DNA from: Candidatus Lustribacter sp.
Lineage (GTDB): Bacteria > Vulcanimicrobiota > Vulcanimicrobiia > Vulcanimicrobiales > Vulcanimicrobiaceae
Reading direction: 5' to 3'
DNA length: 64,000 nucleotides
NCBI GenBank assembly: GCA_965277805.1
Contig: OZ255842.1
Location: 2,592,001 to 2,656,000 of the forward strand
The notes under the pieces: model-generated
Database searches by the model: none
What the model saw: the letters and a program-made list of their open reading frames with translations, nothing else
What the model was told of the DNA's origin: nothing
Program-made: the position numbers and the translations under genes
Shown here: positions 29,896 through 46,747 of the stretch, piece by piece
Numbering within the stretch: position 1 is the first letter of the stretch
Layout: the number at the start of each line of letters is the position of its first letter

Positions 29896-31056
29896 CAACG
29901 GAAAGACCGGGATCGCGGCCAGCACGCGAACGAGCCAGTGCGCGTCGGAGAACGTTCCCTCAGCCGCCAGGACGCGATCGAAGATCAACCGCTGCAGCAT
30001 CGCCTGCATGCCTTGCGTCAAGCGCGCCGGACGCTCGCGCCGGGCTTGCACGCCCGCGAGATCCCGCTCCGAAACAACGCCACGACGTAGCGGCTTCGCT
30101 AGACGGTTGGCGGTGGCAACCGCATCCTGAATCGCAAGATTGACACCGACCCCGCCGACCGGCGAGGTCGCATGCGCCGCATCCCCGATGCACAGCAATC
30201 CGGGACGGTGCCACCGGCGCAGACGGTCGACCTTGACCGCAAGCACTTTGATGTCGTCCCAGCTCTGCAGTTCGCCGGCCCGGTCCGCGAACACCGGCAT
30301 CAATGCCGACACCCGTTCGCGCAGCAGCGCGAGGCCGGCCGCGCGAACCGCATCGTAGGTTCCTTTCCGGATGATGTAGCCGCACTGGTAGTACGTGCCG
30401 CAGTTGATCGCGACGAGGATGCGCCCGGCGTCAACGTAGCCGAGCAGAACCGCCGGATCGGCCGGATTGCGCGAGATGCGAAACCACAGGACATCGAGCG
30501 GCGCGCCCAATTCGACCGGCTGCAATTCCGAACGGCTGCGCATCGCCGAATGGCGCCCGTCGGCCGCAACGACCAGATCGGCGCCGATCGTCAGCGAGCC
30601 GTGCGGCGTCTGCGCACGAACTCCGGTCACGCGCGTTCCCGTCTCGACCAGGTCCGTCGCTTCGGCATTCATCTCGAGCCGAAACGCCGGCAGCGCGCGA
30701 GCGCGCTCCGCGAGAAAATTTAGGAAGTCCCATTGCGGCATGATGGCGATGAACTTGCACCGGCCCGGCACGTTGCGGAAATCGGCCGCGCGCATGAGCC
30801 GCGGTCCGACCATGCCGTGAAACGCGCGCAACTCCGCGTGCGGAAGCTGTAAGAAGTCGTCGAGGAGGCCGAGTTCGTCAAGCACCTGTAACGTCGACGG
30901 GTGCACCGTGTCGCCGCGAAAGTCGCGATGGAAATCCGCGTGCTTCTCGAGCACGACGACGTCAACGCCGGCACGGGCCAGCAGATAACCGAGCATGAGC
31001 CCGGCGGGGCCGCCGCCGACGATGCAACAGTCCGTCTCTCTACGCGCAGAACTCAT
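29689..31056 (-). CDS. FAD-dependent oxidoreductase/monooxygenase (UbiH-like)
   Basis: GGGPAG, DFRGDTVHPST, AADGRHS, IGDAAHATSPVGGVGVNLAIQDA. Confidence 0.9.
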   Translation of the reverse strand: MSSARRETDCCIVGGGPAGLMLGYLLARAGVDVVVLEKHADFHRDFRGDTVHPSTLQVLDELGLLDDFLQLPHAELRAFHGMVGPRLMRAADFRNVPGRCKFIAIMPQWDFLNFLAERARALPAFRLEMNAEATDLVETGTRVTGVRAQTPHGSLTIGADLVVAADGRHSAMRSRSELQPVELGAPLDVLWFRISRNPADPAVLLGYVDAGRILVAINCGTYYQCGYIIRKGTYDAVRAAGLALLRERVSALMPVFADRAGELQSWDDIKVLAVKVDRLRRWHRPGLLCIGDAAHATSPVGGVGVNLAIQDAVATANRLAKPLRRGVVSERDLAGVQARRERPARLTQGMQAMLQRLIFDRVLAAEGTFSDAHWLVRVLAAIPVFPLLLARVFGVGFCPEHVERSVLGPDAPCDHHEVEHAENQRVPNETERQRDARQLERDDEIIRVPHEAKRA

Positions 31057-31386: not shown

Positions 31387-32499
31387 CTAGGTGACGATCG
31401 TCCGGCCCGCAATCGCACCCGCCGGACCGTCCCTAAGTACGATGTGGAGCGCGAGAGCGGTTCCGGCGTGCAGTACGTCGTCGCTATCGAGGGCGATCGA
31501 CGGTGCATCTTCGACGTCCATGCCGATGCCGTGCCCGAGTCCGTAACCGCTCGCAAAGGCCAGCAAGGCGTCGTCGTTTAGCGCTGTTTGCGCCGCGGCG
31601 GCGATCGTGCTGCCGCGCGCGCCGGCGATGGCCGCAGCTTCCATCGCATCGACCGCCGCGCGGGCGCGCGACGCAAGGTGCTCGGCCCGGGCGTTCGGCG
31701 TGCCGATTGCGAACGTTTGCGCGGCTTCGCTCCAATAGCGCTGAATTTCGACGCCCAAAAACAACATAACCGTGTCGCCGTCTTCAAGCCGGCGCTCGAG
31801 CGGCGGCGCGAGCTCGTTGTGGCCGGGGCCGCCCGAAGTGAGCATCCGCACGTCTTCCGCGCCGGCCAGCCGGATCGCGCGCTCGATCTGCGCAAAGGCT
31901 TCGCTCGTTGACGCGCCGGGGCGCAACAGCGTCGCGGCCAGGGCAAACGCGGCGTCGAGAACGCGCGAGGCCTTATGCGCGACGGAGAAGTCAGCCGCGT
32001 CTTTGTTGCGGCGCAAAAGCGCGAACTCCGCATCGCGCGGCACGAACGTCACGCCGGGGACGGCGCTGCGGAGAGCATCCCACTCGCGAGCCGGAAACGT
32101 TTCTACCACCCCGATCGTTCCGATACGAGCCTTTGCAAGACCCTGCTCTTTCAGCGTTTCGGCGAGCTTCTTCGCCAGGTTCGCAAACATGCGGACGTCG
32201 GCAATCCAGGTCACCGGACGGATCGAGGGCAACGTCCGCGCGCCGCCGTTGACGAACACGACCGGCGGCGCATCGAGCGTCACCAGCACGGCGGCATCGC
32301 GGATGCGTGGAAAATAGTGCGCGACGTACGCGAGCGCTCCGCAACGCTGCGCATCCCCGTAGAAAAGCCAAGCGGAATCGCCGGCGGCTCGGATGGCCGC
32401 CTGCACGTTCTCGAGCCGTGATTGCAGCAACGCCGCCGGCACGAGGTCGGCATCCCAAAAGACCGCGCCATGCTTGATGACCGTGTGAACGGTTTGCAT
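31387..32499 (-). CDS. M24 (creatinase/aminopeptidase P fold) protein, degenerate metal site
   Basis: Creatinase-N-like region, GHGIGMDVED; TGATG-coupled to the upstream paralog. Confidence 0.8.
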   Translation of the reverse strand: MQTVHTVIKHGAVFWDADLVPAALLQSRLENVQAAIRAAGDSAWLFYGDAQRCGALAYVAHYFPRIRDAAVLVTLDAPPVVFVNGGARTLPSIRPVTWIADVRMFANLAKKLAETLKEQGLAKARIGTIGVVETFPAREWDALRSAVPGVTFVPRDAEFALLRRNKDAADFSVAHKASRVLDAAFALAATLLRPGASTSEAFAQIERAIRLAGAEDVRMLTSGGPGHNELAPPLERRLEDGDTVMLFLGVEIQRYWSEAAQTFAIGTPNARAEHLASRARAAVDAMEAAAIAGARGSTIAAAAQTALNDDALLAFASGYGLGHGIGMDVEDAPSIALDSDDVLHAGTALALHIVLRDGPAGAIAGRTIVT

Positions 32500-33641
32500 C
32501 AGACCGTGCGCCAGAAAAGCTTCGCCGGCGTCTTCGTCAGCACCCGCGGCCGCGCGTTTTCGATAACTACCGTATCGCCGAGCATTAGGTAGCCGGTGTC
32601 GGGAAAATACTGATTGGGATGGATGACGAACGTCATGCCCTCTTCGAGCGTCGGACCGCCTTCCGGGTCGAGATCGCCCGGCAGCACCGACCCTCGTCCG
32701 AGACCGTGACCGCGCGTGCGCATGTACGGCGGCCGGCAAAACTCACCGTAGCCGCAGTCCGCGATCACTTGGTTGGCGGCCTCAGCGATCGCGGAGCTGC
32801 TCTGCCCCGGTAATGCCGCCGCGAAGGCCCGGCGCTCTGCTTCGACGAGGATGTTGAAATTTTCCACGGTTTTCGGCGTCGGCTCGCCGAGGACGAACGT
32901 CCGGCATAATTGGGCGTGATAGCCGTGAAATGCGGGAGTGATTTCGCCGACGATAACGTCTCCCGCTTCGAAGCGCCGCTCGGTGGCGCTGCGCACGGCG
33001 GTGTTATGGCTTCCGCCGGCGATCAAGCCGAAATTATCGGCCGCCCCGAGCGACTTCATCGTGGCTTCCACTTCGGCCGACAACTCGTACTCCCGCATGC
33101 CCACGCGGGCAACCTCGCAGATCCTTGCAAAGCCGGCGTCGGCAATTTCCGCGGCGCGTGCAATGCGCGCGATCTCCGCCGGCGATTTCGTCGCAGCCAG
33201 GCGCGGGATAATTTCCTTTTCGTCCGTCAGCGACGCGAGCGCGGGAAACGAATCCACCGCGCGTACCGGGAGCGCATCGCCGCCGATCAGCGAGACCGGC
33301 CGCGGGGCTTGCGCGATCGATGCGGCCGCCGCATGCATCAACCCGTTTGCATTGGCCGCAACGACGTCCGCATAGGGAACGCGACGTTGGGCGCGTGGCG
33401 CATCCCATGCGGGCGTCACAAACAGCGTCGGGCGGCCGTCAAGCGGCAGCAGCAGCCAGCACGGACCGACGGCATAGAAGTCGGTGAGATAGAACAGCTC
33501 GCCCATGCGCGTCATGTCGTGCTGCGCGCTATCGTAGACGGCCAGCGTCGCGATCTTCTTCTTCGCCATCTCCGCGCGCACGCGGTCCAGCCGGCCGCGA
33601 AGTTCGGTTTCGGAAACGTGAAGCGAATCGTCGAGCAGCAT
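32499..33641 (-). CDS. M24 (creatinase/aminopeptidase P fold) protein, non-canonical ligands
   Basis: KSPAEIARI, GEITPAFHGYHAQLCRTF, RGHGLG, FVIHPNQY, LGDTVVI. Confidence 0.85.
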   Translation of the reverse strand: MLLDDSLHVSETELRGRLDRVRAEMAKKKIATLAVYDSAQHDMTRMGELFYLTDFYAVGPCWLLLPLDGRPTLFVTPAWDAPRAQRRVPYADVVAANANGLMHAAAASIAQAPRPVSLIGGDALPVRAVDSFPALASLTDEKEIIPRLAATKSPAEIARIARAAEIADAGFARICEVARVGMREYELSAEVEATMKSLGAADNFGLIAGGSHNTAVRSATERRFEAGDVIVGEITPAFHGYHAQLCRTFVLGEPTPKTVENFNILVEAERRAFAAALPGQSSSAIAEAANQVIADCGYGEFCRPPYMRTRGHGLGRGSVLPGDLDPEGGPTLEEGMTFVIHPNQYFPDTGYLMLGDTVVIENARPRVLTKTPAKLFWRTV

Positions 33642-33697
33642 AGGGCGCCGTATTCGGCACGTCCACGAGGTTTCGCCCCTGCCGCCGCTGCACTCAA

Positions 33698-34642
33698 ATG
33701 ACGATGAAGCGTTCGCAATGGTTGGCATCAAGCGCGGCGTCGGGGATCTTCGCGGGTGCGGGGCTTTCGCGAGCGGTCGCGCAGGATGCGCCCGCGCTCA
33801 GAATCGGCCTGCCCTACGCGGAGCCGAGCGGACCGGCCTACTATGCTCAGGAGCTGGGGCTCTATAAGAAGGCCGGGCTCAACGTCGAGCTCGTGCAATT
33901 GCAAAACGGAGCAGCCATCGCGGCCGCCGTGATCGGGGGCACCGTCGACATCGGCGCCTCCCAAATTCTCTCGCTAGCGGTCGCACGCTTGCGCGGCGTA
34001 CCGTTCATGATGATCGCAGCGGGCGGCTTGTGGGATGCCGCGCGCCCCAACGCGGGGTTGATCGTCGCGCCCAACTCGCAGCTCACGCGCGGGCGCGACC
34101 TCGTCGGCCGCACGGTCGGAACGACCGTGCTCGGTGGAACCGATCAGTTGGGCGTATTCGCGTACGTCGACCGCGACGGCGCGGATCACAAAGGCGTGAA
34201 GTTCGTTGAAATGCCGGCCAGCGTCATGGTCGACGCCGTCCTGCAGGGCCGCGTCGACACGGCGCACGTAACCGACCCGGCGTTCTCGGATGCGATCGCT
34301 TCCAAGCGCATCCGCATTCTGACGAATCCCTTGAGCAGCATCGCGCGGCGGTTTATCCTAACCGCCTACTTCACGAATAGCAGTTGGCTCGCTGCGAACA
34401 AACGCGCCGCGCAAGCATTTGCCGGCGTGATCAACGACGCCGGCGTGTGGGCGATGAACAATCGCGAAGCGGCGGCGCAGATGCTCGCGAAGTACATCCC
34501 GATGGCGGAGCCGCGCGTTACGTCCACATTCGGTGACAGGCTCGACCCGGCGCTCGTTCAGCCGATGTACGATCTGGGCGCCAAGTACGGTTTTCTTTCG
34601 AGCCCGGTCGACAGCAAGACGATGCTCTGGAACGGCAAGTAA
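33698..34642 (+). CDS. SsuA/THI5-like ABC substrate-binding protein
   Basis: Tat-like signal, ELGLYKKAGLNVEL, DLVGRTVG, GRVDTA. Confidence 0.85.
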   Translation: MTMKRSQWLASSAASGIFAGAGLSRAVAQDAPALRIGLPYAEPSGPAYYAQELGLYKKAGLNVELVQLQNGAAIAAAVIGGTVDIGASQILSLAVARLRGVPFMMIAAGGLWDAARPNAGLIVAPNSQLTRGRDLVGRTVGTTVLGGTDQLGVFAYVDRDGADHKGVKFVEMPASVMVDAVLQGRVDTAHVTDPAFSDAIASKRIRILTNPLSSIARRFILTAYFTNSSWLAANKRAAQAFAGVINDAGVWAMNNREAAAQMLAKYIPMAEPRVTSTFGDRLDPALVQPMYDLGAKYGFLSSPVDSKTMLWNGK

Positions 34643-34741
34643 GGACGCCTTAAGACGTTCGAAATCTGCCCTTAATTTAAGCTTTACCGCAGACTTTTAA
34701 CGTACGGCTAAGTCGGGCCTCGGCTCGAGACTTTTTGTTTT

Positions 34742-37669
34742 TTGGAGGGTTCGTTGCGCATCCGTACCTTGAGCGCGGCTTTTTTTGTCATGTGCGCGAT
34801 CGCACTGCCGCACGTCGCGATCGACGCGCAGACCAGCAAGACGATCGCAGCCGCACCCGGCGATAGCCGTCCACCGTCGCTCGGCATAAGCATCGTGATC
34901 AACCCGGGCGCCGGTGTCGGCACCTTAACGAGAGGACAGGTCGCCGGCGTCTTCAACGGCACCGTGACCAATTGGAGCCAGGTCGGCGGCGCAAACGTTC
35001 CGATCGCGGTCGTCACCCGCGGAACGGATTCGCTCGCGCAAGCGGCCTTCGATAAGGTATACCTCGGCGGTGCGAATCCGACTGCAGGCCAGGCGCAGCC
35101 AGGTACGGCTGCCGCGATCGACGCCGTGAGCGTCAACCCGGGCGGCGTAACCTTTGCGTTCGACAACGAACTCACGGGTGCCGGCGGTGTCGCCTTCGTG
35201 AGCGTGAGCGACGTACGGCAGACCGACGTGACCGGCCTCATCAACCTCGGCACGGTGGGTCAAACGACGGAAGCGGGTGCCTTCCAGATCATTGGCGGCG
35301 CAACGTCGAGCGGGCCGGCAATCGGAACAATAGCACCCACCCAGGCTGACGTTCATTCGATGGAAGCGCATTCGTTGATCACGCGGGACTTCATCGAAGA
35401 AAACGCGTCGCCGATCGCGGAATTTACGCGCATCGCGACGATCGCTCCGAGCGTCACCAACACGGGTGCGGTCAACGGACCGGGGCTCTCCGAGCAAACG
35501 CTGATCATTCGCGGCATGGCAAAAGACTTCACCAACCTCACGTTCGACGGTATCCCCGTCAGCGACACCAATGATCCGTCCTACCATTCCACCTCGTTCT
35601 TCCCGGAACTGATCGTCGGCGGCGTCGACGTCGTTCGCGGCCCCGGCTATGCGAGCAACATGGGCTATGCCACGTTCGGCGGTTCTGAAAACGTGTACAC
35701 CCTCGCGCCGTCGGAAACGAAGTCGCTTGATGCCGCCTTTTCCTACGGTTCGTGGAACACGTACATCGGCAGCCTGAGCTATCAAAGCGGCCGCCAGAAA
35801 TGGCTCGGCAACGGAACGCTGATCGCCACCTACCAGGACCTCGGCTCGCAAGGGTATCTCACCGGCAACGCGATTTGGAGCCGCAACTACTCGTTCAAGT
35901 ACGAAGTGCCGCTCGGCAGCAAGACGCTCTTGGACGCGTTCGCGACTTGGAACGATCAAGCGTTTAATGCTGCCGACGCCGGCCCCGGCGCCACGGCCTA
36001 CGAGATTCAAACCTTCGGCGCGGACTACAGCCTGAACAACAACCCGGCCAGCGGTGAATATACCGGCTATAACTTTCAAATCAAAACCACCGACCTCGGT
36101 TATTTACGCCTGCGCACCGATCTCGGCGGCGGTGCCTATCTAGACAACAAGCTCTACACCTACCGTTACGACAACGAGACGACGGCGGCCGATACGGTCG
36201 GTCTGACCTCGACAATGGCGGCAGCCGGACAGTATCCCTCGCAAGGCACGATCACGTGCATCGCGAGCCCCGCCGCATGTACGGCTCCGCTCACGCCTGG
36301 ATCGCTCGCCTCAAACGGCCTAAAGTATAACCCGACCGATATCGGCGGCTATCTCAAGCGCAACAAATACATCGCCTTCGGTGACATTCTCCAGGGCACG
36401 AAAACGTTCGGCGACAGCTTCCTGCGCGCCGGCATCTGGCTCGAACACTCCGACACGGATCGCCACCAGTACTCGGTCGATCTTACGGACGGCGCCTACA
36501 ACTACGTCAATGGTTCGAACTGCCTCTTCGGCACGGCCCTCGGCGCCGGACAGATCTCCGGTGCAGCGGCCCCGACGGTCATTGCCCCGAACTGCGCTGC
36601 GTCGGCCGCCGGTCTTCCGGCCGGTTTGAAACAATTGCCCGGTCCGAGCGCCGGCGCGCTGCTCAACGGCGTGCCCATCGGAGCCGTCAAGTTCGACCAG
36701 CAGTCGCAGATCCTCAACGCCCAACCGTTCGTCGAATTTCAGTGGGTGCTGCCCAGCGGCACCACGATCTACCCCGGCTTCAAGTGGCTGAACATCCAAC
36801 GCTACGATGACGCGGCGATTCAGAATACGTCGCGCACGCCCAACTCCACCAACAAGATCCTCTACCAAGCGGGCCTGCCGTTTCTCTCGATCAATCAGCC
36901 GATCACGAAAAATCCCGGCGCGAACACGAACAGTGCGTTCTTCTTCCAGTATGGTCGCGGCTACGAGATTCCCGATCTCGCGACATTTTACGTGGCCAAT
37001 CCCCTGCAGAACTCGCCGACACCGAACTCGACCTCAACCTATCAGGCCGGGTTCGTCGGCACGTCAAACGAATTTCTCTGGGACGTCGACTACTACACGA
37101 TCAACTTCTCCGATCTGCAGAGCGCGCTCAGTGTCGACGCAGCCGGCAATCTCTGTGCGGCGGCAGCGGCGGGTTGCAACTACACCGCGTACTTCGATGT
37201 CGGCGGCGCGAAATATCAAGGCTTCGAATTTGAAGGCACGCTGAATCTCGGCGGCGGCGCGGCGCTCTACGCAAACTTTTCGACCGACGAAGCCAAAGAG
37301 CTGACGTACAACACTCAAGTCAAGGGCGTACCCGAGATGACGGCCGCGCTGGGCCTTCTCTATAAATCGAAACATCTCGACTCGTCGCTGATCTACAAAC
37401 AGATCGGTTTCCAATACCTCAACGCGTACACGGGCCCAGCGTCCGCGGCGAACTACAATGATCCGGCCCAGCAAGTCCAGCCCTACGGTCTGCTCGATTT
37501 CGATCTGACCTGGCGGGTGGGCCGCGGAATATTCCAGTTCAACGCTTACAATGTCGGCAACTCGCAACCGTACTTGTCGGCCGTCACGACGACGCTAACG
37601 TCCGGCAGCCTGATGAACCACATTGCGCCGACGAGCATGCTGCTGAGTTACAAGCAAAAACTCTTCTAG
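34742..37669 (+). CDS. TonB-dependent receptor with N-terminal PstS-like periplasmic-binding domain
   Basis: Signal peptide; PBP-like IVINP...LTRGQVAGVFNGTVTNWSQVGG; plug (IIRG, FDGIPVSD, VDVVRGPG, FGGS); beta-barrel with YNVGN and terminal Phe. Confidence 0.85.
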   Translation: MEGSLRIRTLSAAFFVMCAIALPHVAIDAQTSKTIAAAPGDSRPPSLGISIVINPGAGVGTLTRGQVAGVFNGTVTNWSQVGGANVPIAVVTRGTDSLAQAAFDKVYLGGANPTAGQAQPGTAAAIDAVSVNPGGVTFAFDNELTGAGGVAFVSVSDVRQTDVTGLINLGTVGQTTEAGAFQIIGGATSSGPAIGTIAPTQADVHSMEAHSLITRDFIEENASPIAEFTRIATIAPSVTNTGAVNGPGLSEQTLIIRGMAKDFTNLTFDGIPVSDTNDPSYHSTSFFPELIVGGVDVVRGPGYASNMGYATFGGSENVYTLAPSETKSLDAAFSYGSWNTYIGSLSYQSGRQKWLGNGTLIATYQDLGSQGYLTGNAIWSRNYSFKYEVPLGSKTLLDAFATWNDQAFNAADAGPGATAYEIQTFGADYSLNNNPASGEYTGYNFQIKTTDLGYLRLRTDLGGGAYLDNKLYTYRYDNETTAADTVGLTSTMAAAGQYPSQGTITCIASPAACTAPLTPGSLASNGLKYNPTDIGGYLKRNKYIAFGDILQGTKTFGDSFLRAGIWLEHSDTDRHQYSVDLTDGAYNYVNGSNCLFGTALGAGQISGAAAPTVIAPNCAASAAGLPAGLKQLPGPSAGALLNGVPIGAVKFDQQSQILNAQPFVEFQWVLPSGTTIYPGFKWLNIQRYDDAAIQNTSRTPNSTNKILYQAGLPFLSINQPITKNPGANTNSAFFFQYGRGYEIPDLATFYVANPLQNSPTPNSTSTYQAGFVGTSNEFLWDVDYYTINFSDLQSALSVDAAGNLCAAAAAGCNYTAYFDVGGAKYQGFEFEGTLNLGGGAALYANFSTDEAKELTYNTQVKGVPEMTAALGLLYKSKHLDSSLIYKQIGFQYLNAYTGPASAANYNDPAQQVQPYGLLDFDLTWRVGRGIFQFNAYNVGNSQPYLSAVTTTLTSGSLMNHIAPTSMLLSYKQKLF

Positions 37670-37692
37670 CGTTTTACCGGCGCAACACCACG

Positions 37693-37731
37693 CGAGCCCG
37701 CCAGGGCTGTACCCGGCGGGCTCGTCTTTTT
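37693..37731 (+). terminator. Intrinsic terminator after the TonB-dependent receptor
   Basis: CGAGCCCGCC...GGCGGGCTCG stem followed by TCTTTTT. Confidence 0.85.
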
Positions 37732-37771
37732 GCCAAAGGATTCGCGCCCACGGGCGTCTGAGCACGGAGGC

Positions 37772-38947
37772 ATGATCAAACGTTTTCCGGCTCTGCTCGT
37801 CCTCGGGGCGCTGCTTCTCTCGCTGCGGCCGCCGGCCGAGGCCCAACCCGCTCCGCTCGAGATCAACATCATGCTCTCGATGACCGGACCCGCCGCGTTT
37901 CTCGGCAACGCCGAGTTCGCTGCCTTTCAGGCCGCGGAGAAAACCGTCAACGCGCACGGCGGCGTCAAGGGCCGGCCGATCAAGATCGTGATTTCGGACG
38001 ACGCATCGAGCCCGCAAGTGGCGCTGCAGCTCGCCAACTCGTTCATCGCCAAAGGCGTGCCGGTCTTCCTCGGATCCCCGTTCGCATCGGCCTGCGGCTC
38101 GTTTCTTGCGATCGTCGCGAAAAATGGTCCGGTGAATTTCTGTCTGTCGCCACCGGTCAGCGCGCCGCCCGGAAGCTACGTCTTCACGGCCGGCGCCAGC
38201 GCCGCCGATCTCACCGTGGCGCTGATCCGGTACTTCCGCGAGAAGGGCATGACGCGCTTCGCGATCATCTCGACCACCGACGCCACCGGTCACGCGTTTG
38301 AGGCCGGTTATCTGACCATCCTCGGGCGGCCGGAAAACAAGAAGCTTCAAATCGTCGCAAACGAGCACTACAACCCGACCGACCTCAGCACGTCGGCGCA
38401 GATCGCGCACATCAAGGCGGCCGATCCGCAAGTGCTGCTGACCGGCACGGTCGGCACGCCGATGGGCACGATCTTGCGCGGCGTGCAAGACGTCGGCCTC
38501 GATATCCCGATCGTCGCCGTCAACGGCAACATGCTCTATCAGGAGATGGATCAGTTCGCCGCGATCATTCCGAAGGAACTGGATTTCCCGTCGTACCGCG
38601 CCATGATCGAAGGCGACGTGCGGCCCGGCCCGATCCGCGACGCGCAAAAAGTCTTCTTCAGCGCGCTCAAGGGCGCAAACTTGAAACCCGACGCCGCATC
38701 GGTGACGGGTTGGGATCCGCTGATGATCGTGTTGAGCGCCTACGCGCATCTCGGTATGAACCCGACGGCGGCGCAAATCCACGATTACATCGAGAACCTG
38801 CACGGGTTTGCCGGCGTGAACGGTCTGTATGATTTCCGCGACGGCGGTCAGCGCGGGATCGGCGCGCAAGTCATCGTCGTCGATCGCTGGGATCCCAAGG
38901 CCAAGACGTTCATCGTCTTGAGTAAGCCGGGCGGCTCGCCAAAGTAA
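37772..38947 (+). CDS. LivJ-like (branched-chain amino acid/aromatic acid) ABC substrate-binding protein
   Basis: GGAGG RBS; SMTGPAAFLG, NAHGGVKGRPIKIVISDDASSP. Confidence 0.88.
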   Translation: MIKRFPALLVLGALLLSLRPPAEAQPAPLEINIMLSMTGPAAFLGNAEFAAFQAAEKTVNAHGGVKGRPIKIVISDDASSPQVALQLANSFIAKGVPVFLGSPFASACGSFLAIVAKNGPVNFCLSPPVSAPPGSYVFTAGASAADLTVALIRYFREKGMTRFAIISTTDATGHAFEAGYLTILGRPENKKLQIVANEHYNPTDLSTSAQIAHIKAADPQVLLTGTVGTPMGTILRGVQDVGLDIPIVAVNGNMLYQEMDQFAAIIPKELDFPSYRAMIEGDVRPGPIRDAQKVFFSALKGANLKPDAASVTGWDPLMIVLSAYAHLGMNPTAAQIHDYIENLHGFAGVNGLYDFRDGGQRGIGAQVIVVDRWDPKAKTFIVLSKPGGSPK

Positions 38948-38972
38948 AGCTTTAGCGTTGCACGCCAGCAAG

Positions 38973-39791
38973 ATGCGCCGATTTATGCCGCTTCCGGTTT
39001 TTCTATTTGCCGCCGCAATCGGCGCCGCACCCGTAAGCGCGGACACACCGGACTTCGCGCCGGCAAGTCCGCCGAGCGCGTGCTCGACGCAAAATCCGGC
39101 ATTCACCACCGACGATCTCAGCGGCGTCGCCTCGCCGTGCGTCGTGACGCCGGGATCGCTGCTGATCGAAACGCTCTATTACCAAAACGCATCGCGCATC
39201 GGCGGCACGGCGCTAGCCGCATATCCGCTCTTCCGTCTGCGCAGCGGCATCGTGCGCCGCGTCGAGCTGGTCGTCGATCTGCCCTCGCAAATCGCCGAGT
39301 CGGGCCTCAACGGTGCAGGTCTCTATCCGCGCACGCAGATGGGTTACGGGTTGAATTACACGGCCATTGCTAACGCGCGCTTGGCGGCAGCGTTCGGGGC
39401 CGAAGTCATGCCGCCGAGCTCGCGCTTTACCGTCAACGAAGCGCAGCCTCGGTACGTGATCGATTTCACGGTGGGCTACCATCTGCTGCCCCACGCAACG
39501 CTCTCGGCGATTGCCAGCGGCTCGTCCTCACGTCAAGTCGGCTTCAACCAAGTCTTCCCGGCAGCAGCCGTACGCATGGCCTACGATTCGAGCGTCGCGA
39601 CGCAGTTCTCGACCGATGTCGGGGCGCGCGTCGTTACACGACATTCCGTCGCGCAAGCGTACGGCGACATCGCGGTCAGCGAACGGCTGCGCAAGAACTG
39701 CACCTTCGCCGTCGGCCTCGGCACGACGTTCAACCCGGTGTCGAACGCCAAGGCGCACTATCTCGCGAGCGGCTTAAACTTCCACCTTTAA
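38973..39791 (+). CDS. Putative outer-membrane beta-barrel (COG4313/MetA-pathway transporter-like)
   Basis: Signal peptide, SPCVVTPGSLLIET, amphipathic strands, ends GLNFHL. Confidence 0.55.
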   Translation: MRRFMPLPVFLFAAAIGAAPVSADTPDFAPASPPSACSTQNPAFTTDDLSGVASPCVVTPGSLLIETLYYQNASRIGGTALAAYPLFRLRSGIVRRVELVVDLPSQIAESGLNGAGLYPRTQMGYGLNYTAIANARLAAAFGAEVMPPSSRFTVNEAQPRYVIDFTVGYHLLPHATLSAIASGSSSRQVGFNQVFPAAAVRMAYDSSVATQFSTDVGARVVTRHSVAQAYGDIAVSERLRKNCTFAVGLGTTFNPVSNAKAHYLASGLNFHL

Positions 39792-41039
39792 CTGTTCGTC
39801 GTAGGCGGCGGGCATTGCGACTTGGCGTGAGAGCAGAATCTCGCGGCGCTCGCGCGCAGACTCGATCAGCGCCACCACAACTTCGAGCGTCGCGCGGCCC
39901 CACACGCCGTCGTGGAAGAGCGGCCGGCCGTTGACGACGCTGTCGTAGAGTTCGCCGAGGATCGAGAGCGTCAGGCCGCCGGAGGGATCGGCTTCGGGGC
40001 GCTGCAGGTCGCGTAGATCGAGTTCTTCGCGGCCGCGATCGCTATAAACGATGATCCCGTTCTCCGCGCTGCGCATCATGCCGCGCTCGCAGCTCACCTC
40101 GACCGGTCCGAGGTCGAACGGCTTCCATCCCTGACGGCCGGCGTGTTTCTTTTTCGTCGGATCGCGGCGCCCGCCGATACGCCAGTCGGCTTTCTCGCCG
40201 TCTTCGTCGCGCGTGCCGGAGAGCAAGTCGCGGCGCATGCGCGCGCGATCGGCATCGCTGAATCGCTCGTCCGCCGCGACCCACGGATACAATTCGGACA
40301 TCACGAAGTAGCCGTAGCCGTTGTGCATGATCGTGGCCGGCGTGCCGTCCTCGAACTCGAGAAACGCGGTGTAGTATCCCGGCACGGGCCGCGCTTCGAG
40401 CCAGCGCCCGGTTTGCGCGCGCACGCTGCGCACCAGACCGCCGCCGAGCAACCGGATCGTATCGATTTGATGCGGACCCTGACGGAACACGATGCCGCCG
40501 CCTTGTTCGGGATCGAGTTCGTCGGCCGTGCGCGGCCGGATGAGCCAATCGGTATACGCCCAGATATGGATCGCGGTCACCGCGCCGAGCGCGCCGCCGA
40601 GCGCGATCCGCCGCATCGCGCGATTCCAGATCGAGAGGCTGCGCGTGTGGCCGCAGGCAAGGCGCACGCCGTATTTCTCTGCGGTCTCGACCATGCGGTC
40701 CGCCTCGGCCAAATCGACCGCCATCGGCTTCTCGACGACGACGTGCTTGCCGTGGCGCATGGCCTCGATCGCGTGCTCGCAATGAAAGCGATTCGGCGTC
40801 GCGACCCACACCGCATCGACGTCATCGGCGGCGCACATCTCCGCTACCGTCGCGTACGTCTTCGTGCCGGGATAGGCGGCCTCGAAGCCGGCCCGCATCG
40901 CCGGGTTCATGTCGGCCCCGGCCACGAGCGCGTACTCCGGCATCACGTCGATGGCGGGCATCGTGCTCGCCGCTCCTTGACCCAGGCCTGCCATCCCCAT
41001 TCGCAACTGTCGCACGCGGCAATCTCCTTCGCCGGGCAC
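39774..41039 (-). CDS. Gfo/Idh/MocA oxidoreductase, phthalate cis-dihydrodiol dehydrogenase-like
   Basis: GMAGLG, VATPNRFH, VEKPMA, YTDWLIRPRTADELDPEQGGGIVFRQGPHQID. Confidence 0.85.
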   Translation of the reverse strand: MPGEGDCRVRQLRMGMAGLGQGAASTMPAIDVMPEYALVAGADMNPAMRAGFEAAYPGTKTYATVAEMCAADDVDAVWVATPNRFHCEHAIEAMRHGKHVVVEKPMAVDLAEADRMVETAEKYGVRLACGHTRSLSIWNRAMRRIALGGALGAVTAIHIWAYTDWLIRPRTADELDPEQGGGIVFRQGPHQIDTIRLLGGGLVRSVRAQTGRWLEARPVPGYYTAFLEFEDGTPATIMHNGYGYFVMSELYPWVAADERFSDADRARMRRDLLSGTRDEDGEKADWRIGGRRDPTKKKHAGRQGWKPFDLGPVEVSCERGMMRSAENGIIVYSDRGREELDLRDLQRPEADPSGGLTLSILGELYDSVVNGRPLFHDGVWGRATLEVVVALIESARERREILLSRQVAMPAAYDEQLKVEV

Positions 41040-41083
41040 CGTAAACCTTGGACAAACGCACCCGGCCGCGCTAGACTCGAATC

Positions 41084-42391
41084 ATGCTGACACTCGAAGA
41101 GAACGAACGGCTGACCCGCGTCGGCCCCGGAACCCCGATGGGCGCGCTGATGCGCCGCTATTGGCAACCGATCGCCGCGGCCTCGGAAATGAAGGACCGC
41201 TGGACCAAATCCGTGCGCCTGCTCGGCGAATCGCTCGTCCTCTTCAAAGACCGCAGCGGCCGCTTCGGGTTGATTGAAGAATCATGTCCGCACCGGCGCG
41301 CGTCGTTCCTCTACGGCATCCCGCAAGCGGACGGCATTCGCTGCCCCTATCACGGTTGGAAATTCGACGGCACCGGCAAATGCTTGGAACAGCCGAACGA
41401 GCCCGCCGACAGCACGTTCAAAGACCGCGTGAAGATCGCCGGCTATCCGGTTGAAGAGCGCGGCGGCTTGCTCTGGGCCTACATGGGCCCATTGCCCGCG
41501 CCGAACGTTCCGCCGCTTGCCGGCATCGATTCGCCGCATGCGATCCGGCTGCTCGGCAGCGCCGTGATCCCGTGCAACTGGCTGCAGATCATGGAGAACT
41601 CGGTCGACGCGGTGCACACCGAGTGGCTGCACGGGCATCTGTTCGAGTTCGTGCTCGAGCACAAGAACTTCAAGACCAAGTTCACGCGCAAGCATCTCAA
41701 AACGGCGTTCGATGAATTCCCCTACGGCATCATCAAGCGCCGCGTGATCGAAGGGCACACCGAAGACGGCGACGACTGGAAGATCGGTCACCCGGTCGTC
41801 TTCCCGTCCACGCTGCTCGTCGGCAATGCCGGCGACGAAGCCTGCCACATGCGTTATCAGTTCCGCGTGCCGATGGACGACACGCACACGCTTCACCTGT
41901 GGTATCACGTGATCGCGCCGCCGCCCGATCTGGAAATCCCCGCCGATCTCGCCGACACCGTGCACACCTACGACGTGCCCTATACCGACGAGCGCGGGCA
42001 GTATCTGCTCGACTCGATTCACGCGCAAGACATCATGGCGTGGATCACGCAAGGGCCGATCGCCGATCGCTCGCTCGAAGCGCTCGGCACGACCGACCGC
42101 GGGATCACCACGTACCGCAACATGCTGCGCCGCGAACTCAAGCGCGTCGAAAACGGCGAAGATCCGATGAACGTCTTCCGCGGCGCGGAGCCCGAAACGA
42201 TGGATCTGCCGCTCGAACTCGAGCGCACGCAAGGCGATCTCAGCCCCGAGGGTGCGCGCGGCGAAGGCTTCGCGATCACCAACCTGCGGGCGATGTTCAG
42301 CCGGCACGAGGGGCGCTTCTGCCCGCGCGGCCCCGAAATCGTCGACATGTTCGTGCAGCACCGGGAGCGCCAGCCGGCCGGCGTGGTCTAG
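41084..42391 (+). CDS. Rieske non-heme iron oxygenase alpha subunit (phthalate 4,5-dioxygenase/LigX family)
   Basis: LTRVGPGTPMGALMRRYWQP, CPHRR...CPYHGW, ENSVDAVHTEWLH, QDIMAW. Confidence 0.92.
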   Translation: MLTLEENERLTRVGPGTPMGALMRRYWQPIAAASEMKDRWTKSVRLLGESLVLFKDRSGRFGLIEESCPHRRASFLYGIPQADGIRCPYHGWKFDGTGKCLEQPNEPADSTFKDRVKIAGYPVEERGGLLWAYMGPLPAPNVPPLAGIDSPHAIRLLGSAVIPCNWLQIMENSVDAVHTEWLHGHLFEFVLEHKNFKTKFTRKHLKTAFDEFPYGIIKRRVIEGHTEDGDDWKIGHPVVFPSTLLVGNAGDEACHMRYQFRVPMDDTHTLHLWYHVIAPPPDLEIPADLADTVHTYDVPYTDERGQYLLDSIHAQDIMAWITQGPIADRSLEALGTTDRGITTYRNMLRRELKRVENGEDPMNVFRGAEPETMDLPLELERTQGDLSPEGARGEGFAITNLRAMFSRHEGRFCPRGPEIVDMFVQHRERQPAGVV

Positions 42392-43342
42392 GTGCGGTCG
42401 ATCGATCGCCGGGCAGCGCTCGGTGGGCTCGCCGCGTTCGCGAGTGCGGCCGCACTCGGCGCATCGGCGCGTGCGGAGGGAGCGCCCGTGCGCATCGGCG
42501 TCGGCAATGCCGACACGTTCGCCGAGGGCTACTACGCGACCGACCTAGGCTTCTTCGCCAAGGCCGGTCTCAACATCGATCAGCAGGTCTTCAATTCCGG
42601 CGGTGCGATTCTCGTTGCGGCCGGCGGCAACGCGCTCGACATCGGTCTCTCCAACACCGGCAATCTGGCGACCGCGATCGCGCACGGCGCGCCGTTCACG
42701 CTGATCGCCGGCGCCGGCATGTACACGGCGAGCAATCCCACCACGGTGCTGATGGTGGCGTTGAATTCACCGCTGCAGAAACCGGCCGATCTCGCCGGCA
42801 AGACGATCGCCGTTACGGCGCTCAAAGATCTCACCGAAGTCGGCACGCGCGCGTGGCTCGCGCGCAGCGGCGTCGAGCCGAACAGCGTCAAGTTCGTCGA
42901 GCTGTCGATGAACCAGATGGCCGCGGGTCTCGACCGCGGCACGTTCGATGCCGCGATCATCGGCGAACCGTTCCTCTCCGCCGTGCGCGGCAAGACGCTG
43001 CGCGTCTTCGCCAACGCCTACGACGCGCTCGGCCCGCAGTTCCTAATCGCGAACTGGTTTTCGACCACCGACTACGTGAAGAAAAACCCCGACGTCATCC
43101 GCCGCTTCGTCGCGTCGGTGTACGATACGGCGCGCTGGGCGAACGCCAACCACCCCGCATCGGGCAAGATCCTCGCCAAGTGGACGCAGATGGATCCGGT
43201 CGCCGTCAGCGCGATGGGCCGCTGCCAGTACGCCACCTCGCTCGATGCGAAGCTGCTCGATCCGGTGCTCGCCGCGATGTACAAGTACAACGCGATCGAT
43301 AAGAAACTGAGCGCCGCCGACCTCGTTACAACGCTCGGCTGA
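42392..43342 (+). CDS. SsuA/THI5-like ABC substrate-binding protein
   Basis: Tat signal DRRAALGG, DLGFFAKAGLNI, DLAGKTIAV. Confidence 0.87.
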   Translation: MRSIDRRAALGGLAAFASAAALGASARAEGAPVRIGVGNADTFAEGYYATDLGFFAKAGLNIDQQVFNSGGAILVAAGGNALDIGLSNTGNLATAIAHGAPFTLIAGAGMYTASNPTTVLMVALNSPLQKPADLAGKTIAVTALKDLTEVGTRAWLARSGVEPNSVKFVELSMNQMAAGLDRGTFDAAIIGEPFLSAVRGKTLRVFANAYDALGPQFLIANWFSTTDYVKKNPDVIRRFVASVYDTARWANANHPASGKILAKWTQMDPVAVSAMGRCQYATSLDAKLLDPVLAAMYKYNAIDKKLSAADLVTTLG

Positions 43343-44552
43343 CCAGCGCTCCCAGGCGCGCGACGCCTTCGGCGATCACGTCTTCCGGTGCGAGCGAGTA
43401 GTTCAGCCGGATCGTGTTGCGCACGGCACCGTTGGGTGAGAACGCGCCGCCGGGCACGAACCCGATGCGCTCTTCGAGTAGCGAGCGCTCGAGCAATTCC
43501 GCACCGTCGATGCCCTCGGGCAACGTCACCCAGACGAACATTCCGCCTTCGGGCTTGCTCCACGTCACGCCGGGCGGCATGCTTGCGGCCAGCGCGTTCA
43601 GCATCGCGTCCCGCCGGCGCCGGTAAGGCGGTACGAGCGTGCGCACGTGCTCGTCGAACATCGTGCTCGCGATGCGGTGCACCACCATCTGATTGATCGT
43701 TGCCGAGTGCAGATCGCCGCCTTGCTTCGCCAGCACGATCTTGCCCACGAACTCGCGCGCGGCGCAAATCCAGCCGACGCGCAAACCCGGGCACACGGTT
43801 TTCGAAAACGTCCCGCAGTAGATCACGGGGCTGCGCTCGATGCTGCCGCTGCGTTCGATCGCGAGCGCCGCAATCGCCGGCACCGGCTCGCCGTCGAAGC
43901 GAATCGCTTCATACGCGGCATCTTCCAGCACCGGCACGTTCAACTCGGCGGCGAGATCGAGCAGCGCACGCCGGTTCGCCAGGCTCAGCGTTTCACCCGA
44001 TGGGTTGGCAAAGTCCGACACGACGTAGCCGAACGCGACGCGTCCGCCGTTCTCCGCGGCCTTGCGCCGGTACTCGGCGGCCGTGTTGCTAAACAGCACG
44101 TCGTAGTGCGGTTCGTATGCGTTGAAGGCTTGCAGCGCGCCGAGATACGTCGGTTCTTGCACCAGTACCGTATCGTGCGGGTGGATGAACAATTTCGCGA
44201 TGAAGTCGAGGCCCTGTTGCGAGCCCGACGTAATGACGATGTTGTCGAGCTCGCACGGAACGCCGCGGCGGCCCATGTAATCGACGATCCAGCGGCGCAG
44301 CGGCCCGTAGCCCTCGCTGACGGAATACTGCAGCGACGACGTGCCCAGCACCGGATCGGCGAGAATCTCGCTGTACGCGCGCCGGATCGCGTCCATCGGG
44401 AAGAGCGCCGGATCGGGGATGCCGCCGGCAAACGACACCACGTCGGGGCGTTCGAGCAGCTTGAGCAGCTCGCGAATTTCGGAGGCGTGCATGCGCGACA
44501 CGCGGCCGGCAAACCAGTCGCTCCAGTCGACGGCCGCTTCGGGTGCTAACAT
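43326..44552 (-). CDS. PLP-dependent aminotransferase class I/II (LysN/Aro8-like)
   Basis: SFAGGIPDP, EPTYLGA, EDAAY, GTFSKTVCPGLRVGW. Confidence 0.92.
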   Translation of the reverse strand: MLAPEAAVDWSDWFAGRVSRMHASEIRELLKLLERPDVVSFAGGIPDPALFPMDAIRRAYSEILADPVLGTSSLQYSVSEGYGPLRRWIVDYMGRRGVPCELDNIVITSGSQQGLDFIAKLFIHPHDTVLVQEPTYLGALQAFNAYEPHYDVLFSNTAAEYRRKAAENGGRVAFGYVVSDFANPSGETLSLANRRALLDLAAELNVPVLEDAAYEAIRFDGEPVPAIAALAIERSGSIERSPVIYCGTFSKTVCPGLRVGWICAAREFVGKIVLAKQGGDLHSATINQMVVHRIASTMFDEHVRTLVPPYRRRRDAMLNALAASMPPGVTWSKPEGGMFVWVTLPEGIDGAELLERSLLEERIGFVPGGAFSPNGAVRNTIRLNYSLAPEDVIAEGVARLGALVSRAL

Positions 44553-44564
44553 CGGCGACCCGGC

Positions 44565-45446
44565 CTAAAGGCTAACGAGCGGATCGGGTGCGCGGAACTC
44601 GACGATATCGGGCTTGGAACCCCACGCGCAGAACGCCTCGGCCGTGAACGGCAATTGACGCGGAATGAAGCTCGACTCGTCTTCGATGATCCGCACGCCG
44701 CACGAGTACTCATAGACCATCTTGTCGAGGCCTTCGAAGTACAAGAACACCGCACCCGACGAGACGTGACGGCCCGGACCGAACACGATCCGGATGCCGC
44801 GCTGTTCGCGCAGCAGATACCACGAGCGCATCACGTCGTCGATCGATTCGACCTGATGGTTGATGTGCTGCACGCCCACGTGCGAACTCGGAAAGAGCGC
44901 GATCGTGTGGTGGACTTCGTTGATGCGCAAGAGCGGCGCGTCGCCGATCCAGTCGCTGGGGCGCGCGTTGAACACGCGCGTCCAGAACTTCTCGTCGCGC
45001 GGAGCGTCGTTCGTATGCAAGCCGATATGGCTGAAGCCCGTGATCCCGGCATCGCGCGACGGAAAATAGCGTCGCGTCGCGGCTTGGGCGCGCCACACGA
45101 TCTCGATCTGGTTTCCCGTCGGATCCTTGAACGCGATGAAATCGAGGACGCGCCGCGCTTCACGTTCGGACGCCGTGCCGGCATGCACGGGATAGCCGGC
45201 GCGTTCGATCTCCGCGGCCATCGCTTGCAAGTCGGCGCTCTCCGAGACTTCAAAGGCGATCGCATGCTGCGCCGGGTCGCCTTCGACGTAGCAGATCGTG
45301 TGGTCGCGATCGTCGCTGCGGAAGTACGCCATGCCGCGCTCGCGGCCGGCCGCCTCGAGACCTAGCACCTTCGTTGCAAAGTTGGCGGCTTCGCCCAGAT
45401 CGGGCGTGCCGATGCGCACGTAGCGAATGCGCCGCAGATCGATCAT
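44565..45446 (-). CDS. VOC-family extradiol dioxygenase (CmtC/2,3-dihydroxybenzoate 3,4-dioxygenase-like)
   Basis: IRYVRIGT, FSHIGL, HHTIALFP, QHINHQV, FGPGRH, FLYF...VYEYS. Confidence 0.87.
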   Translation of the reverse strand: MIDLRRIRYVRIGTPDLGEAANFATKVLGLEAAGRERGMAYFRSDDRDHTICYVEGDPAQHAIAFEVSESADLQAMAAEIERAGYPVHAGTASEREARRVLDFIAFKDPTGNQIEIVWRAQAATRRYFPSRDAGITGFSHIGLHTNDAPRDEKFWTRVFNARPSDWIGDAPLLRINEVHHTIALFPSSHVGVQHINHQVESIDDVMRSWYLLREQRGIRIVFGPGRHVSSGAVFLYFEGLDKMVYEYSCGVRIIEDESSFIPRQLPFTAEAFCAWGSKPDIVEFRAPDPLVSL

Positions 45447-46498
45447 GCCGCGTGACCGGTGTCGGCGTACTCTTTCTGAATGTCCAGAAATTGATTCCAA
45501 CTGGCATTGAGTGCGTCGACGACCATCGGGTCGAAGTGTGAACCGGACGATTTCTGAATCACGCGCAGCGCTTCGTCGGTCGTCCACGCGCGCTTGTACG
45601 GACGCTTCGAGATCAGCGCATCAAACACGTCGCCGACGGCGGCGATGCGCGCGGCCAACGGAATCTGCGTGCCGCGCAGATGATCGGGATAACCCGTGCC
45701 GTCCCAGCGTTCGTGATGGCGCAACGCGATCTGCGAGGCCAGCTGCAGTACCTTCGACGAGCTGCCGACGAGGATGTCGTACCCGGCGCGCGCGTGGCGC
45801 TTCATGATTTCCCACTCATCGGGATTGAGCGGGCCTTCTTTGAGCAAGATGCCGTCGGGCGTCGCGACCTTGCCGATGTCGTGCATCGGCGTGGCCAAGC
45901 GCAGCAGACGCTGGTCTTCGGAGTCGAGTTCGAGCGTTCGGCCCAGCACCTCGGCGTATTTCCCCATGCGCACGATGTGCAAACCGGTTTCGCTGTCGCG
46001 GAATTCCGCCGCGCGCGTGAGCCGGTTGATCGTCTCTTCTTCGCGGTCGGCGATCTCTTGCGTTGCCCGAGCAACGTCGGCTGCCAACGACGCCGCATAG
46101 CTCTCGAGCTTCTTGCGGCTCTCGCGCAACGCGAGCAAGTTTTTTACGCGCGAGAGAAACTCGACCGGATCGGCCGGTTTGTTCAGAAAATCGCTGGCGC
46201 CGAATTCGAGCGCGCGATGGCGGATCTCGCGATCTTTTTCGCCGGTGATCATCACGAGCGGCGTTTGCGAATCGCCGTGCGCCTTGTTGTAGGCCTTGAC
46301 GAAGTCGAGCCCATCCATGCCTTCGACTTGCCCCATGCGGTAGTCGAGGATGACGAGATCGTGTTCTTGTTTACCGCACCAAACCAGCGCCGCATCCGGA
46401 GACGTGAACGGCTTCACCTTCACGTCTGCAATGCGTGAAAGAATGTGAGCGTAGGCTTTCTGGTTGGTTTCGCTGGTGTCGATGATCGCGACTACCAT
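45443..46498 (-). CDS. Response regulator with HD-GYP c-di-GMP phosphodiesterase domain (RpfG-like)
   Basis: REC (VILDY, LNKP) plus MHDIGK, HHERWDGTGYP. Confidence 0.93.
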   Translation of the reverse strand: MVVAIIDTSETNQKAYAHILSRIADVKVKPFTSPDAALVWCGKQEHDLVILDYRMGQVEGMDGLDFVKAYNKAHGDSQTPLVMITGEKDREIRHRALEFGASDFLNKPADPVEFLSRVKNLLALRESRKKLESYAASLAADVARATQEIADREEETINRLTRAAEFRDSETGLHIVRMGKYAEVLGRTLELDSEDQRLLRLATPMHDIGKVATPDGILLKEGPLNPDEWEIMKRHARAGYDILVGSSSKVLQLASQIALRHHERWDGTGYPDHLRGTQIPLAARIAAVGDVFDALISKRPYKRAWTTDEALRVIQKSSGSHFDPMVVDALNASWNQFLDIQKEYADTGHAA

Positions 46499-46747
46499 CT
46501 CGACTCCGATGCGAATCCGTGGGCGATATACGTAATTGTCCGACGCGACTCTCTGAGCGATGAGTGTTCTACCGGGGGAACAGTATTCCGCAATGGACAC
46601 GCCGACTCTTGGTAACTAGTTCCAAGAGGTGTTTCTGGGGTAAAACAGTACCTGAGCGAGACCATGTTTCATTAACGTCCCCCTGTTCTATTGACGGCCT
46701 GCGCCAACGCGCCTCTCCCCTCGCCGCATAACATTGGGAACGTTCAC

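Follow-up and report, generated by a model that had tools for sequence, protein, structure and literature searches.

An aromatic-acid uptake and oxidation gene block in Candidatus Lustribacter is probably a mosaic of known families rather than one new pathway

In Candidatus Lustribacter sp. (GCA_965277805.1, contig OZ255842.1), twelve genes arranged in five alternating transcription units (31387-46600) bring together two M24-fold proteins (M24A and M24B), three periplasmic substrate-binding proteins (SBP1 to SBP3), a TonB-dependent receptor, a 277-residue outer-membrane protein, a Gfo/Idh/MocA dehydrogenase (Gfo), a Rieske oxygenase, an aminotransferase, an extradiol dioxygenase of the VOC family (VOC) and a response regulator (Table 1). 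The block lies in the window analyzed here, a stretch of 64,000 nucleotides covering positions 2,592,001-2,656,000 of the forward strand; features are given in window positions, and coordinates marked G000 refer to the whole genome, a single contig of 5.53 Mb. A sequence-only reading of this DNA had proposed that these genes form one undescribed system for the uptake and catabolism of an aromatic compound. Its inventory held up: Pfam domain calls, searches against solved structures (PDB) and the predicted fold of the 277-residue protein recovered every gene where it had been placed, and the response regulator, first gene of a regulator-VOC-aminotransferase unit, was the only one that it had missed. 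None of the twelve proteins reaches the curated cut-off of any NCBIfam model. Its interpretation fared less well. The block is probably a compact mosaic made up of four or more units of known families that evolved independently, and not one new pathway, each part being, to judge from its sequence, a new member of a known family, in an Eremiobacterota host genome with a massive expansion of aromatic-acid binding and oxygenating genes.

Table 1. The twelve genes of the block, in window positions, with the evidence for each assignment.
Feature	Position	Strand	Evidence
M24B	31387-32499	-	PF00557, 2e-24
M24A	32499-33641	-	PF00557, 5e-36, and Creatinase_N
SBP1, NMT1/SsuA-type periplasmic binding protein with signal peptide	33698-34642	+	Pfam NMT1, 1e-25
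TonB-dependent receptor, 975 residues	34742-37669	+	Partial PBP_like_2, 4.5e-12 (profile 93-217 of 267), and Plug, 2e-7
SBP2, LivJ-type periplasmic binding protein	37730-38947	+	Peripla_BP_6, 4e-41
Small outer-membrane beta-barrel channel (predicted), 277 residues	38958-39791	+	No Pfam model; predicted fold
Gfo/Idh/MocA cis-dihydrodiol dehydrogenase, phthalate type (putative)	39774-41039	-	Pfam GFO_IDH_MocA; PDB 7wzd
Alpha-only phthalate/LigXa-family Rieske oxygenase	41084-42391	+	Pfam Rieske, 3e-19, and LigXa_C, 2e-14
SBP3, NMT1/SsuA-type binding protein	42392-43342	+	Pfam NMT1, 3e-24
Class I aminotransferase	43326-44552	-	Pfam; PDB 1x0m, 3aov
Two-domain Fe(II) extradiol (VOC) dioxygenase	44565-45446	-	Pfam; catalytic residues
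REC and HD-GYP response regulator	45443-46600	-	HD_5, 1e-37, and Response_reg, 1.5e-19

How far the block holds together was judged among its closest relatives, eight genomes of the genus including this one (G000 to G007), four of which are only 72-84% complete. Regulator and VOC are adjacent in all eight, and the aminotransferase stands next to VOC at full length in six (it is a 125-residue fragment in G007 and absent in G005). The Rieske ortholog is adjacent in five genomes, a Gfo ortholog lies next to Rieske in four (it is absent at the contiguous locus of G001), the M24 pair is adjacent in three and the TonB receptor in two. Neither Rieske nor Gfo is present at the VOC locus of G002, G005 and G006; the Gfo ortholog of G006 (86%) has two other Rieske paralogs for neighbors on a different contig, and the M24 pair, receptor and SBP2 of G007 lie on three different contigs. 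G003 keeps the M24 pair and SBP1, together with a 68-residue remnant of the receptor (G003 C12, 2259-2462).

Several observations weigh against a mosaic. The block is very compact, with 56 bp between the divergent starts of M24A and SBP1, 44 bp between those of Gfo and Rieske, and overlapping convergent ends of neighboring genes; local co-regulation may extend across it. Synteny with G004 covers the entire block, and synteny with G003 covers it minus the receptor. The Rieske-SBP3 pair adjoins aminotransferase-VOC in five of the eight genomes, which may reflect function rather than shared descent alone. Several of the genus genomes are also incomplete or fragmented, and the placement of the G007 receptor elsewhere, on a 7.2-kb contig where a different outer-membrane protein follows it, can be a contig break. 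The G003 locus is disordered in its own right: M24A, the aminotransferase, the regulator and a major facilitator superfamily (MFS) gene are each split between frames, a 47%-identical paralog stands in place of SBP3 and the identity of VOC is just 67%, as a result of either recombination or poor assembly.

If the whole block were one dedicated system, the compound imported by the receptor and the three binding proteins would be a scarce aromatic or N-heteroaromatic one, its ring would be opened by Rieske, Gfo and VOC, and the M24 proteins would hydrolyze the meta-cleavage product or remove an amine or amide. Contiguity and tight spacing argue for such a system, as do full synteny in the closest relative (G004), the lack of any alpha/beta-hydrolase or amidohydrolase domain in the block, which Pfam bears out, and an M24A protein without peptidase metal ligands, which is therefore not a plain peptidase. 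Against this stands the behavior of the genes in other genomes. A genome-collection scan with an M24A alignment yielded 63 M24 loci, distributed over Eremiobacterota, Chloroflexota, Binatia, Alphaproteobacteria, Gemmatimonas, "delta proteobacteria" and Udaeobacter; 56 of the loci are non-Eremiobacterota. Relatives of Gfo, VOC, the aminotransferase and the TonB receptor occur at none of the 56 non-Eremiobacterota loci, and Rieske occurs at one, as a weak match of 26% identity. VOC orthologs are present in 3 of 301 sampled genomes of the phylum, this genome included, and all three belong to the genus. From 548 metagenomic relatives of VOC, the best 80 loci were kept, five of them close (76-87% identity) and 75 distant (57-66%); Gfo, M24, the TonB receptor, the aminotransferase and the response regulator are each absent from all 75 distant loci, and Rieske matches (29-36% identity) appear at three. 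A lack of co-occurrence of the M24 pair, Rieske, Gfo and VOC had been named beforehand as the outcome that would count against a single system, and it is the outcome that these surveys returned. The block also falls apart within the genus (G001, G002, G005, G006 and G007), the conserved partners of the M24 pair are HyuA and HyuB, the relatives of VOC use the aldehyde dehydrogenase (ALDH) branch of the meta pathway and a lower operon lies elsewhere in this genome, and Rieske and binding-protein genes account for about 9% of labelled genome places, so their presence here is expected. We therefore regard a single dedicated system as highly improbable. What survives of the earlier proposal is its general theme of aromatic-acid uptake and oxidation, to which the recurring Rieske-Gfo module and the apparently intact extradiol dioxygenase both point.

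The paralog background of the host genome is unusually dense. Counted as places found by tblastn across G000, there are about 106 Rieske genes of LigXa type, about 265 NMT1-type and about 86 LivJ-type binding proteins, 13 Gfo genes of phthalate type, two M24 pairs, three VOC genes of the block type and a single place for the block's TonB receptor; searching the whole genome with the Rieske protein as query returned 134 matches. With about 351 NMT1- and LivJ-type genes together in a 5.5-Mb genome, the three binding proteins that the earlier reading had correctly listed are unremarkable in one block. The NMT1 expansion is genus-wide, with 147-372 first-look candidates in seven of seven genus genomes versus 0-13 in 23 other relatives; genome sizes are 3.4-5.8 Mb in the genus and mostly 2.2-3.2 Mb in the other relatives. 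Permeases of the NitT/TauT type give 37 matches genome-wide against the roughly 265 NMT1 binding proteins, and most of these binding proteins are therefore orphans. The window itself holds the converse case, a NitT/TauT-like ATP-binding cassette (ABC) permease and ATPase (50276-52277, +) without an adjoining NMT1 gene.

The first of the proposed units is the Rieske-SBP3 pair with its divergent Gfo partner, a pairing that had been noted from the start as phthalate-like. Gfo combines this divergent arrangement with full-length similarity to a solved enzyme, 4,5-dihydroxyphthalate dehydrogenase (7wzd, 2.8e-78 over residues 10-404). The Rieske translation displays the Cys-X-His ... Cys-X-X-His motifs, and its Fe ligands His, His and Asp, together with the bridging Asp, align with the two best solved relatives, 7fhr (1.3e-60) and the phthalate dioxygenase 7fjl (1.6e-56). 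With PDO_KF1 (7FJL) and dehydrogenase 7WZD the block thus shares an alpha-only LigXa-type Rieske oxygenase paired with a Gfo/Idh/MocA dehydrogenase. PDO_KF1 is reported to bind the phthalate carboxylates through Arg207 and Arg244, and 7FHR is RO_CH34, a phthalate-family enzyme reported to turn over neither phthalate nor isophthalate (PMC8649396). On the residues named there, we rejected phthalate 4,5-dioxygenase proper as an identity for the block's enzyme, in which Arg244 corresponds to Ile (in an ungapped stretch), Arg207 to Thr (in a low-confidence stretch) and Ser179 to Ala. Unlike that of PDO_KF1, its neighborhood holds no reductase or decarboxylase gene. Because these three residues differ and neither gene is nearby, the Rieske protein is best placed as a phthalate-family oxygenase whose substrate is probably not o-phthalate. 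RO_CH34 is its best solved relative, a match that gives no substrate.

This arrangement recurs in the genome. A Rieske gene is found within 3 kb for 11 of the 13 Gfo paralogs, compared to an expectation of 2.0 +/- 1.3 (maximum of 6 in 200 shuffles), and an NMT1 gene within 200 bp for 36 of the 106 Rieske paralogs, compared to 11 +/- 3 expected. Gfo, Rieske and a binding protein therefore constitute a recurring genome module, of which the window carries one copy. The correlation between Rieske and Gfo identities over ten paralogous pairs (Spearman 0.64, p 0.045) is weak and involves non-independent kin, and it was not used as evidence. Searches of solved structures with SBP3 returned remote matches only (TauA, 1e-13), from which no ligand is inferable. 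FNR-type NAD_binding_1 domains have just two matches in the genome and none in the window, so reductases for the Rieske enzymes must be shared. We infer the order of reactions, the substrates and the later route of the ring-fission product as follows. This unit, which shares the genome with ten or more other Rieske/Gfo modules, would use SBP3, which begins directly after the Rieske stop, to capture an aromatic, probably carboxylated, substrate and hand it to a shared NitT/TauT-type ABC transporter. The alpha-only Rieske oxygenase, served by a shared reductase encoded elsewhere, would then produce a cis-dihydrodiol, which the Gfo dehydrogenase would re-aromatize to a catechol.

Whether that catechol is the substrate of the neighboring extradiol dioxygenase is a closer question. 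VOC retains the complete residue set of a type I two-domain extradiol enzyme, with iron ligands H140, H194 and E246 and catalytic H179/H180 and Y236, assigned by reference to the BphC numbering, and it is predicted to be a catalytically intact extradiol dioxygenase, as had been suggested. In the VOC-family alignment, many relatives of 33-43% identity lack all three iron ligands and keep the His-His pair, and these may represent a non-catalytic VOC branch. The distant relatives of the block's enzyme (57-66% identity) sit in catechol meta-cleavage operons of the xyl/dmp type, beside XylG-type ALDH, hydratase/decarboxylase and DmpF/DmpG genes. An ALDH cluster lies beside VOC at 40 of the 80 loci (873 bits for its representative on the 2-hydroxymuconic-semialdehyde dehydrogenase model TIGR03216, against a cut-off of 693), and further neighbors are a hydratase/decarboxylase (21 of 80), a 4-hydroxy-2-oxovalerate aldolase (12 of 80) and an acetaldehyde dehydrogenase (11 of 80). 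Unlike the xyl/dmp operons, the genus has its VOC detached from the lower pathway and set between the HD-GYP regulator and the aminotransferase. The sole lower meta operon of this genome (G000 3178357-3183777) lies about 545 kb from the block and comprises a LigXa-type Rieske gene, a XylG-like ALDH, a tautomerase, DmpG- and DmpF-like genes and two cupins; a VOC domain is missing from all 21 open reading frames (ORFs) scanned there (G000 3177078-3185043). Since the relatives of VOC use the dehydrogenase branch and a lower operon exists in the genome, no hydrolase step would be missing from the block. The proposal that the M24 pair fills such a step gave way to the evidence of gene neighborhoods: at non-Eremiobacterota loci the pair travels with HyuA/HyuB (50 of 56) and never with VOC. 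As a candidate hydrolase for the meta-cleavage product it was rejected, with VOC at 0 of these 56 M24 loci and M24 at 0 of the 80 VOC loci.

The second unit is the genus-conserved operon of regulator, VOC and aminotransferase, in which the response-regulator stop overlaps the VOC start (ATGA). The translational coupling of an HD-GYP regulator, of the cyclic di-GMP phosphodiesterase type, to an extradiol dioxygenase is an odd pairing in itself, seen in all eight genus genomes and at all five close metagenome loci (76-87% identity). Completing the unit, the aminotransferase that the earlier reading had placed in the block belongs to the kynurenine/aromatic/2-aminoadipate group (PDB 1x0m and 3aov, 1e-92; LysN 2egy, 9e-86). 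At each of the loci examined in the genus, methionine-salvage-type genes for a HAD hydrolase, an acireductone dioxygenase (ARD) and a class II aldolase (48615-50772, -) lie next to the MFS-regulator-VOC unit. An alternative hypothesis is that this unit has nothing to do with Rieske and Gfo, and that VOC acts on an amino-acid-derived catechol or that the aminotransferase serves the adjacent methionine salvage. The unit persists with or without Rieske and Gfo (regulator-VOC in 8/8 genomes, the aminotransferase in 6-7/8), which are absent at the locus in G002, G005 and G006, and both the salvage genes beside it and the family of its aminotransferase are consistent with such a role. Set against this, the relatives of VOC sit in catechol meta-cleavage operons, the aminotransferase appears at none of the 75 distant loci, and the Rieske-SBP3 pair abuts the aminotransferase in five of the eight genomes. 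We consider an unrelated function of the unit rather unlikely. On the mosaic reading, the chance that VOC cleaves the catechol made by the Rieske-Gfo module falls slightly short of even; the VOC ring-fission product would enter the dehydrogenase (4-oxalocrotonate) branch encoded by the distant operon.

The M24 pair is distributed over several phyla. The two genes are coupled, as first reported, by a one-base overlap of the M24A stop and the M24B start (TGATG), and both products carry the pita-bread catalytic domain. The N-terminus of M24B is conserved among relatives from the ATG at 32499. M24A and M24B are paralogs of each other (hhalign probability 99.9, 23% identity), in a family of 1298 proteins at E <= 1e-20 among 8000 candidates scored. 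Aligned with prolidase 1pv9, M24A has Glu, Gln, His, His and Gly in place of the five metal ligands of the canonical set D/D/H/E/E, following the 1pv9 numbering; these residues (E233, Q244, H312, H341 and G355) are invariant across 14 sequences. M24B has also lost the canonical Asp ligands, which are replaced by F and E. The active-site His of M24B is not constant in the family, where S, N or A can stand instead of H. A prolidase or Xaa-Pro M24 metallopeptidase was rejected as an identity for either protein, both lacking the five dinuclear-metal ligands (Asp, Asp, His, Glu, Glu). Creatinase likewise does without dinuclear metal ligands, and the pair shares with creatinase and prolidase (M24B pita-bread enzymes) the pita-bread domain and Creatinase_N. 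Unlike those enzymes, it consists of two different subunits in tandem, with an invariant E/Q/H/H/G site in one and no conserved His in the other. M24A is likely to be catalytic and M24B probably a non-catalytic partner subunit; that they form a heteromer is suggested by gene order, the one line of evidence for it.

Both genes are present at 57 of the 63 M24 loci and adjacent at 55; of the six loci with one partner, four stop at a contig edge. Hydantoinase_A occurs at 44 loci and Hydantoinase_B at 43, and one or the other at 51 of the 63. Other frequent neighbors are an NMT1 binding protein (33 loci), a nitroreductase-family protein (25) and MmgE/PrpD (17). In other phyla, the pair is thus usually found beside relatives of the ATP-dependent HyuA/HyuB lactamases and carboxylases, which include caprolactamase CapA/CapB. 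The models that these neighbors match best are those of CapA/CapB, at 522-567 and 238-256 bits, far under the equivalog cut-off of 1000. No Hyu gene lies in the window, so the window's pair does not itself form a HyuAB-M24 module. An orthologous pair in G007 (63-66% identity) follows HyuA-HyuB on a separate contig, and the G000 ortholog of that HyuAB lies at G000 655999-659765, about 2 Mb from the window's pair. By descent, then, the pair would derive from a caprolactamase-like HyuA/HyuB module for lactams or N-heterocycles, stranded here away from its nearest HyuAB ortholog, and would act as a C-N hydrolase built from two pita-bread-fold subunits, of which M24A would be catalytic and have a non-canonical site. 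More broadly, it is conceivable, and we offer it tentatively, that tandem M24A/M24B is a widespread heteromeric pita-bread enzyme of soil Chloroflexota, Binatia, Alphaproteobacteria, Gemmatimonadota and Eremiobacterota, its metal site converted to an invariant Glu/Gln/His/His set and its second subunit non-catalytic, which with caprolactamase-like HyuA/HyuB (often also nitroreductase and MmgE/PrpD) makes up a new route for lactams or N-heterocycles, with the window copy relocated. A narrow search of the open-access literature returned nothing linking M24 proteins to hydantoinase- or caprolactamase-type genes.

Between the M24 pair and Gfo lies what we propose as a variable envelope-uptake unit of SBP1, receptor, SBP2 and outer-membrane channel. 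The receptor was rightly described as fused to a binding-protein domain. It has a Plug domain, its barrel is recognized through homologs and the genome holds a TonB system (10 TonB_C matches), as expected of a TonB-dependent transporter. The C-terminal 589 residues have no Pfam match at E 10; homologs of 29-75% identity carry the barrel model, and the unfused relatives (29-40% identity) carry PF00593. PBP_like_2 is fused in 29 of 103 receptor homologs, and among the 18 Plug ORFs of the genome it is confined to the block's receptor. The plug, a barrel homologous to proteobacterial receptors and a downstream outer-membrane barrel are shared with extended TonB receptors and small outer-membrane channels (FadL/TodX, KdgM/OmpG, PF13557). 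Unlike other extended receptors, this one has as its extension a PstS-like binding-protein domain, partial here; nothing on binding-protein-fused TonB receptors emerged from a narrow open-access literature search. A homolog in G177 has full-length PBP_like_2 and unrelated neighbors. The receptor occurs in three of the eight genomes of the genus and in 3 of the 301 sampled from the phylum, with different neighbors elsewhere, and its proposed part as the scavenger of an aromatic pathway is not borne out. SBP2 finds remote amino-acid binding proteins only among solved structures (1e-12), with no ligand inferable.

The 277-residue protein had been put forward as a putative barrel, and modeling agrees. 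Given a 36-sequence alignment, AF2 predicts an all-beta barrel (pLDDT 81.3, pTM 0.76; the model made without an alignment, at pLDDT 33, is unusable), and the top Foldseek matches in PDB are the outer-membrane channels OmpG, KdgM, NanC, FapF and FadL. The protein is accordingly modeled as a small outer-membrane channel. Unlike the named channel families it lacks a Pfam model: neither the protein itself, even at E 10, nor any of 120 listed among its 139 homologs, which are rich in Eremiobacterota, has a Pfam match. An Atlas feature search pointed to clusters of PF13557 (MetA-pathway phenol-degradation) with a score of 0.98, a lead only, with no Pfam match at E 10.

Another possibility is that the M24 pair and this divergent envelope unit belong together as a single unit that takes up and hydrolyzes an N-compound, driven from their common 56-bp intergenic region and independent of the aromatic genes. 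The divergent arrangement favors it, as do the NMT1-type genes found at 33 of the 63 M24-pair loci and the second M24 pair of this genome, which lies in an IclR-M24A'-M24B'-NMT1-ABC operon. SBP1, however, is at most 32% identical to the binding proteins that flank M24 genes and up to 40% identical to other G000 paralogs, and was rejected as an M24-linked type; the pair, receptor and SBP2 are on three contigs in G007; and G003 keeps the pair and SBP1 with nothing but the receptor remnant. We judge a joint unit to be quite improbable and prefer to treat the pair and the envelope genes as separate parts of the mosaic.

What is of residual interest is the M24 heteromer, the fused receptor and the genus-wide family expansion, none of which overturns known biochemistry. 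A Rieske/Gfo/binding-protein module with 11 or more copies in a single uncultured lineage of peat soil points to a way of life based on scavenging many aromatic acids. A two-subunit M24 enzyme that is uncharacterized and tied to ATP-dependent lactamase-like genes across phyla is a lead for further study, and the union of a binding-protein domain with a TonB-dependent receptor is a rare fusion. For genome scans, the block is a caution that extreme paralog expansion can yield dense, pathway-like gene runs without a pathway, and that co-occurrence needs testing beyond close kin.

Two loci lie on the M24B side of the block. A cluster at 28299-31056 encodes a type III polyketide synthase (DpgA-like, 2.5e-40), an ICMT-family methyltransferase and a PRK06185-type FAD monooxygenase (592 bits, cut-off 500), a gene set that resembles the Srs/Ars phenolic-lipid genes. 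Beyond it, the reading frame of a gene for a StyD/HpaE-like aldehyde dehydrogenase (26730-28130, -) lacks the first 60-85 residues. An N-terminus typical of ALDH can be read immediately upstream in a different frame, and the gene is therefore broken by at least one frameshift near its 5' end, which makes it either a pseudogene or an assembly error.

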